This document shows, piece by piece, positions 4,120 to 12,727 of a stretch of 62,997 nt of DNA (positions within the stretch are counted from its first letter, which is position 1; each line of letters opens with the position of its first letter). A program made the translations under genes and the position numbers. Origin of the DNA: Fimbriimonadales bacterium. GTDB taxonomy: Bacteria; Armatimonadota; Fimbriimonadia; Fimbriimonadales; ATM1. The notes under the pieces were generated by a model. It had not been told where the DNA came from. It searched no databases and saw nothing but the letters and a program-made list of their open reading frames with translations. The stretch covers positions 1-62,997 of the forward strand of contig JBGTLG010000038.1 in NCBI GenBank assembly GCA_041744215.1, written 5' to 3'.

Positions 4120-4992
4120 CTACCGTCGAGAAGCGGAGGGCGTCGAATTGACGCTCGGGTTCGAAGTCAAGTTGGCCGCGTTCGTGCCGTCGGTGTTCAT
4201 ACGCCACACGTCAAAGTTACCTCCGCCAGCGTACGCTTGCCAAACGACGGCCTGGGAGTTTGATGTGAACTTGGGCGCCCAGTTTGGGCCACCGTTATCG
4301 GTGAACTGCGTCGGATCTGTGCCGTCCAGATTCATGATCCAGACGTCGAAGTTGCCACCCTCGTCCGAAATGTACGCGATCTTTCCATTGTTAGGACTTA
4401 TAGCGGGGAAGTAGTTGTATCCACCGGTGTTTGTGAGTTGTGTTAAACCGATTTCCGTGCCACCGGCGTTGATCCTGTAAATCTCATAGTTGCCGGATCG
4501 ATTGCTGCCAAAGTAGATGAGATTTCCATGACCCCAAAACGGTGCGGAGTTGTCTGCTGACACACTCGTTAGCCGGATCACGTTCGAACCATCGCTGTTC
4601 ATCTGGTAAAGGTGATTCTGGTCGCCTTGATGGCTTACCCAAACGATCTTTGTGCCGTCTGGGCTCCAGCAAGGTTGGCGATCATCCGATCCGCTCACAG
4701 TCAACCTCTGGACATTCGAACCATCAAAGTTCATCACGTATATCTCGAAGTTCCCATCGCGGTCGCTCACGAACACAATATGCTCGCCGTCGGGGCTAAG
4801 CATTGCCTCTTTGTCGTCGAAACCGTTGGTTGTGATTTGAGAAAGATCGCCACCAGTAAAGTTCATCACGAATATCTCGTTATCTCCGTCTCGATCCGAG
4901 ACGAAGACAATCTTCGTGGGCTTGATTCCGACGCAGGCCGCACCTATGGCTATGGCCGCTGCTGCCAGCGCGATTGCGAGTTTCGCTTTCAT
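4120..4992 (-). CDS. TolB-like (PD40/WD40) beta-propeller lipoprotein
   Basis: Lipobox GAAC; repeated SPDG..I.F.SDRDG..EI..MN.DG....LT blades. Confidence 0.85.
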   Translation of the reverse strand: MKAKLAIALAAAAIAIGAACVGIKPTKIVFVSDRDGDNEIFVMNFTGGDLSQITTNGFDDKEAMLSPDGEHIVFVSDRDGNFEIYVMNFDGSNVQRLTVSGSDDRQPCWSPDGTKIVWVSHQGDQNHLYQMNSDGSNVIRLTSVSADNSAPFWGHGNLIYFGSNRSGNYEIYRINAGGTEIGLTQLTNTGGYNYFPAISPNNGKIAYISDEGGNFDVWIMNLDGTDPTQFTDNGGPNWAPKFTSNSQAVVWQAYAGGGNFDVWRMNTDGTNAANLTSNPSVNSTPSASRR

Positions 4993-5057
4993 CCGGTCCT
5001 CCAGGTACCCGCGCAGGGCCGCTGCCCCGCAAATTTACGGTTAATCCTGTTATGGCC

Positions 5058-6875
5058 TTATGAAGCGCTTTCCTCAGTCCAAAGCCGCTCAAACTCCCCC
5101 ACAAGACCGTCCAGCACAGCAAATCCCCCGTCCCAGAAGGCCGGATCCTGCAGATCCACGCCGACCACGTCCATCTGCTCTTGCGGGGTCACGGAGCCAC
5201 CCAGCGACAGCATCCGGTTGTACTTTTCCGCAAACTCGGGACCCTCCACTTTGGCGCGCTGATACAGCGAGAGGACGAGCAGCTCGCCGAAAGAGTAGGC
5301 GTAAACATAAAACGGCACGGCGAAGAAGTGGCTGACGTACCCCCACCAGCACTTGTGCTGCTCACCGAGTTTGACGGAACTCCCGAACATCTCCTGCACG
5401 GTCTCTTGCCAAACATCTCCGAACTCGTCTGCCGAGAGTTCACCTTGCTCTCTCCGCATTGTGTGGCACTTTTGCTCGAATCGAAACATTGCCGCCTGCC
5501 GGAAGATCGTCGCGAAAATCCCTTCTATCTTTTCTGCATACAAGGCAAGCTTATCTTTCGGGTCTGCCTTTTCTACGAGCGATTCGAAAACAAGCATCTC
5601 TGCAAAGGTGCTCGCGAGCTCAGCCATAGGAAGTGTGGGCTGGTAGTTGAAGAGAGTCTGCTTCTTCGAGAGGCTGGCGTGGACTCCGTGGCCGAGTTCG
5701 TGCGCAAGAGTCATAACGTCATCCATCTTGTTCATGTATGACATCAGCATAACTGGGTGCGTATCTGGTGTGTTACCACTGCAAAATGCACCACCAGTCT
5801 TTCCGGCCCTCGGCTCGGCGTCAATCCAATTCTTGGCGAAGAACTCCTCTGCTAAGTAGCGCAGCTCAGTTGAGAATCTTCCAAATGCGTCAAGGACCAT
5901 AGACTTCGCCCTGTCCCATTCAACCGTTTCTTTAGTGTCGAACAGAGGGGCATAGCGGTCGATATGTGTAAGTTCGGGCAACTTGAGGATTTGCCTTTTC
6001 AGGTTATAGAACCTCTCGACCAGGCGGTAGTTTGCAGCGCACTTCCCGACCACCAACTCCACAGTCTCGGGATCGAGCTCGTTGGCTAGATGGCGGTGCG
6101 CGTCGGGGGTCGGAAAGCCCCTCAAATCGTCGTCGATCTTCCGGTCCTGGAGCAGCGTGTTGAAAGTGAAGGTAATCACGCGCTGCAGATCGAGCAATCC
6201 CTGAGAGAAGGCGTCCGCTGCAGCTTGACGAAGCGCGCGATTTGGCGATCGCAACAAGTCAAGCACTTCGGTCTGCGTCAAATCCTCGATCTCATCGCTT
6301 CCCGGTCTCTTCAGTTTGAAGACGTGATTGGACGTGATCTCGTCGTGGAGGCGGACCCATGCGCGCGTTCCAACGTTTGCAGTCTTCTCAAGAATCACCT
6401 CTTCCTTCTCAGATAAACGGTATGGCGACATAAGCCTCGCTTTCTGCAAGTAGTGGCTGTAAGCACTTAGCACGGGATCCGCGAGCAGTCGATCCGCAAC
6501 GCCTGTCGGCAGCGCCTGTATCTCCAGCTCAAAGAACATCATCTTCACTTGAAGTTCACTTGCCCACTCCATCGCTTTCTGGAGAAATGCTCCAAGTTTA
6601 GGATCACCGGTATTCGTTGAAAACACGAGATAGGCAAAGTCGATGACTTTGCTTAGCTCGTTGTAGATCGCCTCGGCCTCGCGCGTCGCTTCGAGTAAGA
6701 GTTGCGCCGAAACTTGGGAAGTGTTGATTCGGTCACGGTAGCTTTCGGCAAACCGATCTGCCTGTTGGTGAAGCGCTGCTATTGACGCTTCAATCTTGGG
6801 ATCATCAACGCCAGAAAAGAGTGCGGATAGGTCCCATCGGACCTGCGGGTAGTCGGGTGCGGCTGTAGTGGTCAT
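5058..6875 (-). CDS. pepF: Oligoendopeptidase F (M3B)
   Basis: WDLS.L N-terminus, GK.GGAF, TLAHELGHGVH zinc motif, AE.AS.F.E, PFYVYAYSFG. Confidence 0.92.
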   Translation of the reverse strand: MTTTAAPDYPQVRWDLSALFSGVDDPKIEASIAALHQQADRFAESYRDRINTSQVSAQLLLEATREAEAIYNELSKVIDFAYLVFSTNTGDPKLGAFLQKAMEWASELQVKMMFFELEIQALPTGVADRLLADPVLSAYSHYLQKARLMSPYRLSEKEEVILEKTANVGTRAWVRLHDEITSNHVFKLKRPGSDEIEDLTQTEVLDLLRSPNRALRQAAADAFSQGLLDLQRVITFTFNTLLQDRKIDDDLRGFPTPDAHRHLANELDPETVELVVGKCAANYRLVERFYNLKRQILKLPELTHIDRYAPLFDTKETVEWDRAKSMVLDAFGRFSTELRYLAEEFFAKNWIDAEPRAGKTGGAFCSGNTPDTHPVMLMSYMNKMDDVMTLAHELGHGVHASLSKKQTLFNYQPTLPMAELASTFAEMLVFESLVEKADPKDKLALYAEKIEGIFATIFRQAAMFRFEQKCHTMRREQGELSADEFGDVWQETVQEMFGSSVKLGEQHKCWWGYVSHFFAVPFYVYAYSFGELLVLSLYQRAKVEGPEFAEKYNRMLSLGGSVTPQEQMDVVGVDLQDPAFWDGGFAVLDGLVGEFERLWTEESAS

Positions 6876-6885
6876 GAGAAGTTGC

Positions 6886-6961
6886 TGGCGCCCTCGGAGG
6901 GATTCGAACCCCCGACGCCCGCCTTAGGACGGCGGCGCTCTATCCCCTGAGCTACGAGGGC
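6886..6961 (-). tRNA. tRNA-Arg(CCT), encoded CCA
   Basis: Reverse complement folds: GCCCTCG acceptor, GCTC/GAGC D-stem, CCGCC-GTCCTAA-GGCGG anticodon arm, GGGGG-TTCGAAT-CCCTC T-arm, ends GCCA. Confidence 0.95.
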
Positions 6962-6987
6962 GGGGCAAAGAGGATACCCGCCGAGGC

Positions 6988-7314
6988 TTACTTTGCCTCG
7001 GCTTTTGTTGCAGGCTTGTGGGGTTCGCGAGTGTTGATTACGCCTTGCTCAAGTCTGCGCTTTTGGCGGAGCAACATCGCTTCCCGCGCCATTTCCAGGT
7101 GGTACAGAGCCTGGGCGTTCTCCTCGCACGCAAGGTCGCGGCCTTGAAAGTCGAGCAGCTTCTGGACGAGTACTTCTATCACGTCCTCCACTCGGCATCC
7201 GTTGACCCCGACTTCGGGCACCGGGCCGTGTTGAAACGTGATCTTGATGTACGGTGTCTCAATCTCCGCGTCCGTCCCGTCCATGCTTCTAAATTTCTCC
7301 ATGTTTTCGCTCAT
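6988..7314 (-). CDS. Tad1-like (Acb2/Tad1 superfamily) small protein, putative signalling-nucleotide binding protein
   Basis: SD AGGAG; motif I.FQ.GP..E.GVNG...EDVI......L..FQ....AC.ENA.AL.HLE.A......R...R...GV matches my recollection of the Tad1 core. Confidence 0.7.
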   Translation of the reverse strand: MSENMEKFRSMDGTDAEIETPYIKITFQHGPVPEVGVNGCRVEDVIEVLVQKLLDFQGRDLACEENAQALYHLEMAREAMLLRQKRRLEQGVINTREPHKPATKAEAK

Positions 7315-7405
7315 TTGTCTACTCCTGCCGATCTTCTTGTTTGCATATTAGACCATAACCTCAGTCTCGCTGTGGCGGTACATAATAAGCCTTACGCCGC
7401 CTTTT

Positions 7406-8221
7406 GTGTCCATGAGCCCAGAGCCGAACCTCAACCTGTCCGACGACCAAATCCGGGACTACCGCGAGAACGGCTATCTCACGATTGAGTCTTTCACAAC
7501 CGTCGCGGAACTTGAGTGGATGCGAGAGATTTATGATCGGCTGTTTTCTGAGCGCGCTGGGCGCGAACGAGGTGACGAATTCGACCTTGCGGGCCCTGAC
7601 ATCGACGGTGAGGTCCAGCGGCTTCCTCAAATCTTATCGCCATCCAATCATGCGCCGAAACTCAAGGAAACACTCGCGTTTGCGAATGCGGATGCTATCG
7701 CGAAGCAAATCCTCGGGGAGTGCGGCAGTTGCGCCGGCGACCACGCAATTCTCAAGCCTGCTCGATATGGTTCAGAGACGCCCTGGCATCAGGACGAAGC
7801 CTACTGGGATCCGTCGCTCGACTATGATTCCTTCAGCGTCTGGATTCCCCTTGATGGCGCGACGATCGAGAGCGGTTGCTTGCACTTTGTTCCGGGCAGC
7901 CATCTTGGAGAGGTATGTGAACACCGCCCGATCGGCGGTGACCCGTGCGTCCACGGGTTAGAAGCTGTAGAGCCAACCGTCACAGGGGCCATTCCGTGCC
8001 CCCTCGCCCCTGGCTCGGCCACGATCCACCATAATCGTACGCTACACTATGCGGGTCCAAATCATACGGATCAGCATCGCCGCGCTTACATACTCATGTG
8101 TGGGTCTCAGGCAACACCGAGAGCGACTCCACGATCGTTCCCGTGGAAAGAGATTCAAAAAACGGAGCGGGCAAGGCGAGCCCAGTCCGCGCAACAAAAG
8201 GAGAGCAAGAATGAAAATTGA
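7406..8221 (+). CDS. Phytanoyl-CoA dioxygenase (PhyH) family Fe(II)/2OG oxygenase
   Basis: ENGYL, TPWHQDEAYW (HxD), VWIPLD.AT..SGCL.FVPGSH, H.RTLH..GPN.T...RRA; start 7406 or 7412. Confidence 0.9.
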   Translation: MSMSPEPNLNLSDDQIRDYRENGYLTIESFTTVAELEWMREIYDRLFSERAGRERGDEFDLAGPDIDGEVQRLPQILSPSNHAPKLKETLAFANADAIAKQILGECGSCAGDHAILKPARYGSETPWHQDEAYWDPSLDYDSFSVWIPLDGATIESGCLHFVPGSHLGEVCEHRPIGGDPCVHGLEAVEPTVTGAIPCPLAPGSATIHHNRTLHYAGPNHTDQHRRAYILMCGSQATPRATPRSFPWKEIQKTERARRAQSAQQKESKNEN

Positions 8222-10542: not shown

Positions 10543-11469
10543 CTACAAAGTGCCCATCTCTCGGAGACAGAACTCGGATGGGAGCTCTTTAAAATCGAAT
10601 GTGAAATTTGGGCTGTCAGGGCTACACTCGCCGAGAAAGTTTTCGTCAGCATCCAATATTGCGACAGGCTGGGAACCTGATACCCACCACGCATGAACAT
10701 CTGACTGGTCATCTCCCGAATCAACGTGTGTAATCCGAATTGTGAAAATCTCAGGGTTTGCGATCACCGTGTAGTTCTTTGTTTGGTCATAAGCTGCGCG
10801 GTCCTCGGCGGCCATGAGACGCTGCTCAGCCAACGACAATCGCTCAGGCATCTCGATCCAAGCCTTACCGTAGACGACCTTCAGGCTTCTCGGACCCATG
10901 TAGAAGACGCGCGTCGTCAGCAGCGATCGTGCAACTGCCGCCATCGCATCAACGTACAGTTCCTGTGCGCCGAGGGGCAGAGTGTCTGATGCGGCAAACA
11001 GCGTCTTAATGTCAACGTTTGCGGCGGTCCTCCCGGCTCCACGACTCTTCCACGATCCATCAATGTTGACCGAGGCCTTTCGAATAGCTCGGGCGTAGTT
11101 CTGGCGGACGGTGACGATTCGAAGGCCTTGTGACTCGGCGACCTCCGACAACTCTCGTCCTAGCCAGTGATGCTGATACAGCGTGTCTCTTAAGAGCGGC
11201 TCGTCGATGCCCTCGATAAGCTTGGCAATCGCCAGAGGAGACTCCGGCCTGTCAGAAGTGCCGCTCACCTTAGCACCGGCGCACGCTGCCAGAGCGGCAA
11301 TCTCCCCCCGCTTGCGGTCATTCGTCGTTTTGGAGATTAAGTTGGCACCTTCGGCATCGAGAACCTCCCTCGCAGCAACGGTCAGCGCTCCCAGGTCTGT
11401 CCCGTAAGTGTTAGCGATAAGGCGTAGCGCGTTGGCGTGCTGCCGCAAAAGCAGTTCCGAGGGTTCCAA
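10543..11469 (-). CDS. Hypothetical protein with a sigma70 region-4-like HTH and an unknown C-terminal domain
   Basis: Probable TTG start 11469 after AGGAG; segment LRDTLYQHHWLGRELSEVAESQGLRIVTVRQNYARAIRKA resembles ECF region 4. Confidence 0.5.
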   Translation of the reverse strand: MEPSELLLRQHANALRLIANTYGTDLGALTVAAREVLDAEGANLISKTTNDRKRGEIAALAACAGAKVSGTSDRPESPLAIAKLIEGIDEPLLRDTLYQHHWLGRELSEVAESQGLRIVTVRQNYARAIRKASVNIDGSWKSRGAGRTAANVDIKTLFAASDTLPLGAQELYVDAMAAVARSLLTTRVFYMGPRSLKVVYGKAWIEMPERLSLAEQRLMAAEDRAAYDQTKNYTVIANPEIFTIRITHVDSGDDQSDVHAWWVSGSQPVAILDADENFLGECSPDSPNFTFDFKELPSEFCLREMGTL

Positions 11470-11482
11470 TTTATCTAGTCTC

Positions 11483-12727
11483 CTATCTTCCGACGTCCCG
11501 GCGGTAGTGCCAGTTCTCGTTGAATCTGCCGTCAATTGTTCCATAGACAAGATCTGCTGCCTCTGAGGTACTCGACCCGAGGGCGGTTACGTTTAGGACG
11601 CGTCCGCCCGAACTGACGATTCGAGACCCGTCATAGGAAGTTCCTGCATGATAGATTATCACGTTTTCACAATCTTGAGTCGAAGGGACGGGTATTGAAC
11701 GCGTGTACTCTCCCGGATACCCTGGAGCTGACAGGACGACGGTCACCGCAGTCTCGGCGGCCACCTCCAGCTTAGGGAGCGCGCCACCGGTGGCTGCCGC
11801 CATCAAGACCGCAGCGAGATCGCTCTTGATCCGAGGCAAAGTCGCCTGAGTTTCAGGATCTCCGAACCTGGCGTTGTACTCTAATGCGCGAGGGCCGTCT
11901 TCCGTGACCATCAAACCTGCGTAGAGCGTGCCGATGTAGGGTGTGCCTCGTGCCGCGAACTCCCGCAGGATCGGAGATATGAACAGATTCGCCCAACTAG
12001 TGAAAGTGGACTCGTCAATCCCTGGAGCCGGGGAAACCGCCCCCATGCCGCCAGTGTTGGGTCCCCTGCCTCCATCGAGCGCTGCCTTGTAGTCCTGTGC
12101 GCTCGGCAGAACGCAATACTGTTCACCGCTACAAATCGCGATTAGGCTGACCTCGTTCCCGCGTAGCCGTTCTTCGACGAGAATCACCTCTCCCGCTACG
12201 CCGAACTCGCGTCCGACGAGCATCCCGTGGGCTGCCCTGATCGCTTCCTCGGCTCCCTCGGGAACTACCACACCCTTGCCGAGCGCCTCGCCGCTCACCT
12301 TCACAACTACCTCGCGCCCCGCCGCAGACTCCTTCTCGATATACTCCTTAGCCGCCCCAAAGTCGCTGAAGGTCGCGTAACCACCGGTTGGCACGCCGCA
12401 CTCCTCCATCATCTGTTTGGCAACCGCCTTGCTGCCTTCAATCTGGGCACACACTGCGCTCGGGCCATAGACGGCGACCCCCTCGGCGCGGAGCCGATCG
12501 GCCATGCCTGCGATCAGCGGCCGCTCTGGCCCAAAAACAACGAGATCGATGTTATCGTCACGGCAGATCGCGGTTAGATGGTCTCCGTCTACCAGCGATC
12601 CTTCGCGAAGCGTAGCGACTGACGCGATGCCTGGGTTCCCTGGGACCGCAAACACCTCGGCCGTCTGGGCGAGCTTCCAGCAGAGCGCGTGTTCGCGCCC
12701 ACCTGAGCCCACAACCAGCACCTTCAT
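11483..12727 (-). CDS. purD: Phosphoribosylamine-glycine ligase
   Basis: MKVLVVGSGGREHAL, GPNTGGMGA, EYNARFGDPE, SGGRVL. Confidence 0.97.
   Translation of the reverse strand: MKVLVVGSGGREHALCWKLAQTAEVFAVPGNPGIASVATLREGSLVDGDHLTAICRDDNIDLVVFGPERPLIAGMADRLRAEGVAVYGPSAVCAQIEGSKAVAKQMMEECGVPTGGYATFSDFGAAKEYIEKESAAGREVVVKVSGEALGKGVVVPEGAEEAIRAAHGMLVGREFGVAGEVILVEERLRGNEVSLIAICSGEQYCVLPSAQDYKAALDGGRGPNTGGMGAVSPAPGIDESTFTSWANLFISPILREFAARGTPYIGTLYAGLMVTEDGPRALEYNARFGDPETQATLPRIKSDLAAVLMAAATGGALPKLEVAAETAVTVVLSAPGYPGEYTRSIPVPSTQDCENVIIYHAGTSYDGSRIVSSGGRVLNVTALGSSTSEAADLVYGTIDGRFNENWHYRRDVGR

Follow-up and report, generated by a model that had tools for sequence, protein, structure and literature searches.

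Do bacterial chromosomes carry Tad1 proteins of their own? The question is raised by a 108-amino-acid (aa) open reading frame (ORF) in a 62,997-nucleotide stretch of DNA from a Fimbriimonadales bacterium of the phylum Armatimonadota (assembly GCA_041744215.1, contig JBGTLG010000038.1, positions 1 to 62,997), the whole of which is referred to here as the window. According to the paper that discovered the nucleotide sponge Tad1, all homologues lie in phages or prophages (10.1101/2022.05.03.490397), and a later survey took the genomes of phages and prophages as its sole source for nearly 8,600 homologues of the sponges Tad1, Tad2, and Acb2 (PMC12393519). Our literature search found no description of host-encoded or non-phage Tad1 homologues, and no Armatimonadota names occur in three supplementary files of the survey, which may not list taxa (PMC12393519). 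An earlier note, made from the sequence alone, had proposed that the ORF encodes a host Tad1-like sponge in a locus free of prophage. We find that the window protein is a genuine member of the Tad1 family and that its gene is a vertically inherited cellular gene, relocated by rearrangement and duplicated in one lineage. The best reading of residue pattern and structural models, to which we give a probability of about 60%, is a cellular Tad1-type dimer that would bind an adenine nucleotide, probably neither glyco-cyclic ADP-ribose (gcADPR) nor cyclic tri-adenylate (cA3).

The window protein belongs to the Tad1 family

The ORF has an ATG start and lies on the reverse strand (Table 1). According to the ORF list it carries the peptide quoted in the earlier note, which had also correctly given its length and its AGGAG Shine-Dalgarno sequence; it is the one Tad1-like gene within the window. 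In a phmmer search of 177,635 PDB sequences, the window protein is matched by CmTad1, from a Clostridioides mangenotii prophage (8KBB), at E=7.2e-9 and by five further Tad1 sequences, including CbTad1 from a Clostridium botulinum prophage (7UAV), at E=5.5e-5 to 7.3e-5. With a profile built from 38 members of the protein's own clade, CmTad1 is found at E=2e-11 and CbTad1 at 1.7e-8, the Tad1 PDB chains overall ranging from 2e-11 to 2.1e-8. In PHROGs, phrog_2428, a family annotated with unknown function, is matched at E=7.9e-20, and a match from Bacillus phage SPG24 carries the annotation "Tad1." PF24729, by name the Acb2/Tad1 hairpin domain, is common to 28 of 30 ESM Atlas hits, and PF24729.3 is precomputed for all 120 homologues listed in the search described below, including P0001, which is 99% identical to the window protein. 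Local Pfam and NCBIfam scans of the window protein gave no match, and local Pfam gave none for four homologues either, which is best put down to a local library that appears to lack the PF24729 model and not to absence of the family.

The Tad1 pattern given in the earlier note agrees with the CmTad1 and CbTad1 alignments. Its remark that an N-terminal segment and a Trp are missing also stands, as the alignment sets in around residue 46-51 of the Tad1 chains and Ala79 stands in place of the Trp. UniRef names a homologue from Fimbriimonas ginsengisoli, OP10G_4590, an Acb2/Tad1 hairpin protein; automatic annotation already recognises the domain, so that the family assignment is not new in itself. 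New here is a host-encoded Tad1 type with a shortened N-terminus and without the trinucleotide site. A chance or wrong-strand ORF is ruled out by homology, by a start kept in 81 of 81 sequences, and by the ratio of nonsynonymous to synonymous substitution (dN/dS; see below). A longer ORF on the opposite strand that overlaps the Tad1-like gene (7018..7488, +) was treated as spurious.

The gene is cellular, conserved, and under purifying selection

A word-indexed search found 273 homologues, the best 120 listed spanning 50-99% identity; source names among these 120 are all Fimbriimonadaceae or Armatimonadetes, and some of the homologues are found on contigs 1.3 to 2.6 Mb long. When 1.84 billion cluster representatives were searched exhaustively, 1989 relatives were returned at E<=0.001, of which only three represent the protein's own clade and the next are 46-52% identical. 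Scanning one genome per GTDB species, we confirmed 104 stretches and kept 80, on which the locus counts below rest. The 80 loci come from 71 assemblies, nine with two copies, and are labelled as Armatimonadota in 72 cases, as other groups in three, and without a phylum in five. Loci L008, L029, and L038 belong to metagenome-assembled genome (MAG) records titled Methyloversatilis, Methanoregulaceae, and Archangium; their neighbours match those of Armatimonadota loci (L007, L026, and L069/L076), and these shared neighbourhoods point to likely binning contamination.

With the window included, 81 of 81 ORFs are intact and have the same conserved N-terminus at the start. Pairwise dN/dS has a median of 0.20 (interquartile range, 0.16-0.24; maximum, 0.63) over the 855 unsaturated of 3240 pairs. 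In a family tree with 42 outgroup representatives, which has no root and little resolution (103 columns), the Armatimonadota sequences come together as a single group (82 rows, SH-aLRT 90), and synteny groups map to its subclades. Divergence of the protein also follows that of most flanking genes. The correlation is strongest with the Iso_dh (leuB-like) flank (r=0.86, 0/999 permutations as high), followed by the GH38 flank (Spearman 0.56, 0/999), a 291-aa neighbour (0.52, 6/999), and a 375-aa neighbour (0.49, 1/999). Purifying selection keeps the gene across a monophyletic Armatimonadota (Fimbriimonadia-type) clade. This lineage-wide, selected chromosomal clade suggests that the Tad1 fold, so far tied to phages, also serves the cell.

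All characterised Tad1 proteins come from phages or prophages (10.1101/2022.05.03.490397), and a tRNA gene adjoins the window copy. Both facts would suit an anti-defence gene left behind by a decayed prophage or another mobile element and of no use to its host, an origin that the data already largely refute and that we consider highly improbable. The ORFs are intact with low dN/dS, and their divergence tracks that of flanking housekeeping genes, while the 182 phage relatives (INPHARED records) are all below 60% identity, the best at 46%. It is the 5' end of the tRNA, and not the 3' end, that the gene faces, as the earlier note had seen, and a tRNA lies within 150 nt in only two of the 80 related loci. 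No integrase or phage family was found among the 42 window proteins scanned, and no integrase, terminase, capsid, portal, or tail protein among 240 neighbour proteins of the related loci. The gene is thus host encoded in a core-chromosome window, as proposed, and the strain-specific gene linked to decayed phage sequence, which the note had set against its own proposal, gives way to one conserved in relatives.

The 240 scanned neighbours comprise 59 representatives of recurrent families and 181 of the 185 others within three genes. The other four are ORFs of locus L001; three match window genes that were scanned, and the fourth (4660-5184, -) is antisense to the counterpart of a GyrI-like gene.

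The predicted fold and dimer resemble Tad1

The AlphaFold2 model of the window protein has a predicted local distance difference test score (pLDDT) of 81.6 and a predicted TM-score of 0.66, with a beta-hairpin and two long helices, alpha1 and alpha2 (Table 1). In a Foldseek search of the PDB, the matches through rank 17 are all Tad1, with a query TM-score (TMq) of 0.50-0.66 and a probability of 1.00, and the next one listed has E=0.73. Among the viral models of BFVD, Vibrio phage VP-1 supplies the top match (E=5.3e-6, TMq 0.70), named "Acb2/Tad1 hairpin domain-containing protein." CmTad1 (8KBB, 8KBC, and 8KBD) is the best match (33% identity over 78 columns, TMq 0.63) and has the FQ.G, NG, C.EN, and R...R motifs in common with the window protein. 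It differs in being a prophage-encoded hexamer that has about 25 extra residues at its N-terminus and binds cA3.

When two copies of the window protein are co-folded, the score is 0.54, versus 0.15 for the best control; between runs, at least 90% of the contacts coincide, and the pLDDT of the partner is 66. The mark used for co-folds is reached by 20 of 30 proteins solved as one-chain pairs, against 1 of 23 solved as single chains. The predicted interface consists of strand 20-27, paired with itself, together with alpha1 and alpha2 (contacts 24-24, 23-25, 25-25, 73-73, and 76-76). The published Tad1 dimer is arranged head to tail, with a strand-strand seam and a four-helix bundle (10.1101/2022.05.03.490397), and the predicted architecture matches it. 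The earlier note had suggested comparing a modelled dimer or hexamer with both Tad1 and Acb2 structures. Likeness to Tad1 was found, for the monomer and for the dimer; for Acb2 it was not, as no Acb2 chain is among the 14 PDB sequences matched at E<=10 or among the Foldseek matches listed. Acb2, a phage anti-CBASS (cyclic oligonucleotide-based antiphage signalling system) sponge, shares the helical-hairpin domain by Pfam definition and is seen here via the family name alone.

The adenine and phosphate pocket is kept and the trinucleotide site is lost

Published ligand contacts were mapped via HMMER alignments, with the numbering offset checked on 13 CbTad1 and 11 CmTad1 residues named in the papers. 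In CbTad1 (7UAV, 7UAW, 8SMD, and 8KBE to 8KBH), mutation of F82, N92, R109, or R113 abolishes binding of gcADPR and of 2',3'-cyclic GMP-AMP (2',3'-cGAMP) (10.1101/2022.05.03.490397, 10.1101/2023.11.15.567273). F82 stacks on the adenine, N92 reads its Hoogsteen edge, and R109 and R113 serve in adenine stacking and phosphate binding (10.1101/2022.05.03.490397). These four residues and G55 are identical in the window protein (F56, N66, R83, R87, and G30), while R78 and F87 are conservatively replaced by K52 and L61. Within the clade (n=81), G30, N66, R83, and R87 are present in 81 of 81 sequences, position 56 is Phe in 72 and His in 9, and position 52 is Lys or Arg in 79. Conservation extends to 147 diverse representatives of the family, where N66 is kept in 146 and R83 and R87 each in 147.

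Other contacts are not kept. H29, R57, and N122 of CbTad1 read the ribose-ribose linkage of gcADPR (10.1101/2022.05.03.490397); R57 is replaced by V32 and N122 by R96, and the H29 region has no aligned counterpart. CmTad1 forms its hexamer via R88, T95, Q98, E99, M102, W103, and K106, and R88 and T95 bind cA3 (10.1101/2023.11.15.567273). In an ungapped profile alignment, the corresponding residues of the window protein are E64, Y71, E74, M75, E78, A79, and L82. Both cyclic-trinucleotide residues are thus replaced, the Arg (CbTad1 R90, CmTad1 R88) by E64, a position that is acidic in 64 of 81 clade members, and the Thr (CbTad1 T97, CmTad1 T95) by Y71; the interface Trp has become Ala. Such loss is common among the nearest representatives of the family, the cA3-binding Arg being kept in 36 and the interface Trp in 55 of the 147 representatives. 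The window protein is a natural variant in which the adenine and phosphate pocket is kept and the trinucleotide site is lost.

Residues have also been gained. R9, D12, G13, R59, and H99 are clade specific and fixed in 81 of 81 sequences, and R41 is present in 69 of 81; H99 lies in a C-terminal tail that is extended relative to CbTad1. Among the 147 representatives, position 59 is Gly in 110, and position 41 is mostly Gln or Thr. Since positions 41 and 59 fall in loops by which the ligand pocket of Tad1 is surrounded (10.1101/2022.05.03.490397), the clade-specific arginines suggest a ligand that carries more negative charge.

A candidate cellular binder of adenine nucleotides

What would such a protein bind, and to what end? 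We favour a cellular protein from the Tad1 branch of the Acb2/Tad1 hairpin family, kept in the core chromosome, whose two chains are predicted to pair as in Tad1, by the strand-strand seam and the four-helix bundle. A pocket at either end of the dimer would accommodate a single nucleotide that contains adenine, with N66 reading the base, F56 and R83 stacked on it, and R83, R87, and K52 in contact with the phosphates. Such binding may reduce the free cellular concentration of this nucleotide or relay it. The gene stands alone, without a fixed partner. With the trinucleotide and hexamer residues replaced, the linkage residues lost or unalignable, and R9, R41, and R59 specific to the clade, a ligand other than gcADPR or cA3 is likelier. 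From the residue pattern, a different, possibly more phosphorylated, adenine nucleotide is the more likely candidate.

The earlier note had left two roles side by side, namely a buffer for the host's own immune messengers and a binder of a different nucleotide, and the second appears to fit the residues better. On the first, a domesticated sponge would soak up the host's own Thoeris or CBASS signals, be they gcADPR, cyclic dinucleotides, or cyclic trinucleotides, and so set an activation threshold against autoimmunity. Both the fold of Tad1 and its contacts to adenine and phosphate are kept, CbTad1 takes cyclic dinucleotides in its gcADPR pocket (10.1101/2023.11.15.567273), and a host-side regulator of immune signals is known for type III CRISPR, the ring nuclease Csx15 (PMC13148439). 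We nonetheless hold this role to be unlikely, for the cA3 site is replaced (E64 and Y71) and the linkage-specific gcADPR contacts are lost or unalignable. It finds no support in gene linkage: no TIR, SIR2, or CD-NTase family is present among the 240 neighbour proteins, and PADLOC defence models gave 0 matches in the 33 window proteins scanned, out of 72 called ORFs from which ribosomal-operon, short, and antisense ORFs were excluded. Retention across the lineage in housekeeping contexts is also unlike the patchy spread that is usual for defence systems.

A further explanation dispenses with the nucleotide altogether and has the Tad1 fold reused, for example, as a protein-binding adaptor or a small regulator. 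It would account for the clade-specific N-terminus, where M1, M5, R9, D12, and G13 are conserved in 81 of 81 sequences and have no counterpart in solved Tad1, and it agrees with the occurrence of the same domain in an inner-capsid protein of phage phiKZ (see below). The invariant residues of the window protein are, however, those that hold adenine and phosphate in CbTad1. Because these pocket residues are invariant in the 147 diverse representatives as well, they are as expected from selection for ligand binding, and we regard reuse without a nucleotide as quite unlikely.

Several observations weigh against a cellular adenine-nucleotide dimer. Three of the 11 published gcADPR contacts, those to the linkage, are lost or unalignable. 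The predicted N-terminal sheet, with two clear strands, is shorter than beta1 to beta4 of Tad1, and confidence is low there (pLDDT 55-78 for the first 20 residues, with a mean of 55 for residues 1-10), so that the pocket may be incomplete. As Tad1 complexes have already been solved, the passing dimer score shows likeness and is not independent proof; it may reflect the predictor's memory of those structures. No conserved neighbour among the related loci points to a pathway, and the response regulator flank shows no co-divergence with the protein (r=0.19, 160/999).

If the favoured reading is right, the question becomes which nucleotide is bound and whether the host tunes its signalling with a Tad1-like protein. 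It is conceivable, though in our view unlikely, that Armatimonadota use Tad1-type proteins, of at least three chromosomal subfamilies, to sense or buffer an adenine-nucleotide second messenger of their own and that the phage sponges descend from these or share an origin with them. Phage Tad1 sponges would then not be a purely viral invention. F. ginsengisoli, which encodes OP10G_4590, is cultured, which makes experiments feasible.

Related proteins in Armatimonadota and in phages

OP10G_4590 of F. ginsengisoli Gsoil 348 (P0327), encoded on a 5.23-Mb contig, is 43% identical to the window protein and has the same invariant pocket residues and His99. It differs in its N-terminus and in a conserved acidic C-terminal tail ending in D-F-S-A-T-G, which the window protein lacks. 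Its subfamily consists of 116 members of about 116 aa, from Fimbriimonas where named. In this D-F-S-A-T-G subfamily (P0125-P0129 and P0270-P0384), the tail runs from R-T-E-D through a few residues to D-F-S-A-T-G plus A, G, or S. Nearest among the outgroups is a form of 226-229 aa, whose two members (P0123 and P0124) have some 125 aa of basic N-terminal extension ahead of the whole 108-aa module; the source of P0124 is a 1.36-Mb contig of an Armatimonadetes MAG. F27, Q28, G30, G36, N38, G39, C63, E65, N66, R83, R87, and H99 are common to all three subfamilies. With three chromosomal subfamilies, Tad1-type proteins are a trait of the phylum and not an accident of one genome.

Two variants of the module were noted in passing. 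In P0131, a representative of 201 aa, the C-terminus is Tad1-like, and the roughly 100 aa that precede it look MazG-like by eye. In P0004, a clade member of 178 aa, part of the module is duplicated internally, with three matched stretches; the cause could be a tandem duplication or an assembly chimera.

The capsid protein mentioned above is gp184 of phage phiKZ (8Y6V chain I), of which residues 156-226 match the window protein at E=2.1e-7 and with the profile at 4.2e-9. It has the same A-C-E-E-N motif, so that gp184 too lacks the cA3-binding Arg. Unlike the window protein, gp184 has 230 aa, is packaged in the virion, and has a long N-terminal part; it is described as a minor protein on the inner capsid surface and a vertex-complex protein (PMC11297242). 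The available text of that report does not mention Tad1 for gp184 (PMC11297242). A packaged sponge-like domain in gp184 would be of interest.

Locus and gene neighbourhood

The window has a G+C content of 56% and holds core-chromosome genes, including the S12-S7-EF-G-EF-Tu-S10 ribosomal cluster, SecY, purB, purD, and dnaB, as well as genes for L9, SelB, citrate synthase, and a planctomycete-type cytochrome c domain protein. The Tad1-like gene lies between PhyH and tRNA-Arg(CCT)/pepF, as the earlier note had placed it; its coordinates and those of its parts are collected in Table 1. The tRNA starts 26 nt past the Tad1-like stop codon on the same strand and is the sole tRNA that ARAGORN finds in the window. 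Among known RNAs and riboswitches near the gene, the tRNA alone was found, and a sigma-70 promoter scan of 6700..7600 gave 0 sites. The Tad1-like gene, the tRNA, and pepF follow closely on one another on the same strand (6875..7002; gaps, 26 and 10 nt), and the GC-rich hairpin at the stop codon is stable (RNA fold, -23.6 kcal/mol; z = -4.2). Tight packing and this hairpin suggest co-transcription with RNA processing.

Table 1. Coordinates of the Tad1-like gene, its parts, and adjoining features in the window
Feature	Position	Strand	Remarks
Tad1-like gene, 108 aa	6988..7314	-	Stop codon 6988..6990; ORF list and Tad1 matches
Beta-hairpin, residues 17-26	7237..7266	-	AlphaFold2; strand 20-27 is the predicted dimer seam
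Helix alpha1, residues 42-57	7144..7191	-	AlphaFold2; K52 (CbTad1 R78) and F56 (CbTad1 F82, stacks on adenine)
Helix alpha2, residues 64-89	7048..7125	-	AlphaFold2; E64 (replaces cA3-binding Arg), N66, Y71, A79, R83, and R87
N66 codon (CbTad1 N92 equivalent)	7117..7119	-	81/81 clade; 146/147 family representatives
R83 to R87 codons (CbTad1 R109 and R113 equivalents)	7054..7068	-	81/81 clade; 147/147 family representatives
Shine-Dalgarno AGGAG	7322..7326	-	7 nt 5' of ATG; read from the sequence
GC-rich hairpin, 8 bp	6980..7002	.	Stop codon in loop; coding strand without U-tract
tRNA-Arg(CCT)	6886..6961	-	ARAGORN; Rfam tRNA, 58.8 bits; context only
M3 oligoendopeptidase (pepF-like)	5058..6875	-	10 nt beyond tRNA-Arg
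PhyH	7406..8221	+	Divergent; other flank of Tad1-like gene

The synteny with pepF and tRNA-Arg that the earlier note expected across relatives does not hold. pepF, PhyH, and the tRNA flank the gene in only 1 of 80 loci, L001, that of the 89%-identical nearest relative, and other housekeeping contexts are found elsewhere. Contexts were tabulated for 78 loci; L012 and L035, which do enter the conservation, dN/dS, and tree analyses, are not among them. In the largest group (19 of 78 loci), the gene immediately upstream encodes a GH38 alpha-mannosidase. In seven loci, Iso_dh is the next gene downstream, on the other strand, and hisS follows farther along this conserved block; other recurrent contexts include an M14 peptidase (seven loci) or DUF6941 (five loci) upstream, dinB, infC, and others. 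A common operon partner was rejected, as no gene is shared by all loci, and so was a shared upstream regulatory motif, the 60-nt upstream stretches being unlike between groups as judged by eye.

Single loci show further neighbours. A C-5 cytosine methylase and an HNH endonuclease stand as a pair between the Tad1-like gene and infC in L015 (6350-8025) and L017; its absence from L013, which is otherwise syntenic, gives the pair the look of a small restriction-modification insertion. Nucleotide-signalling enzymes adjoin the Tad1-like gene in two single cases: a GGDEF plus HD protein directly upstream in L073 (3849-5948) and an adenylate/guanylate cyclase-TPR protein two genes downstream in L047 (8581-11250), each without recurrence. 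In the window itself, a 335-aa ORF between purB and purD (10543..11550, -) has no Pfam family and stands in the same place in L001, at 45% identity.

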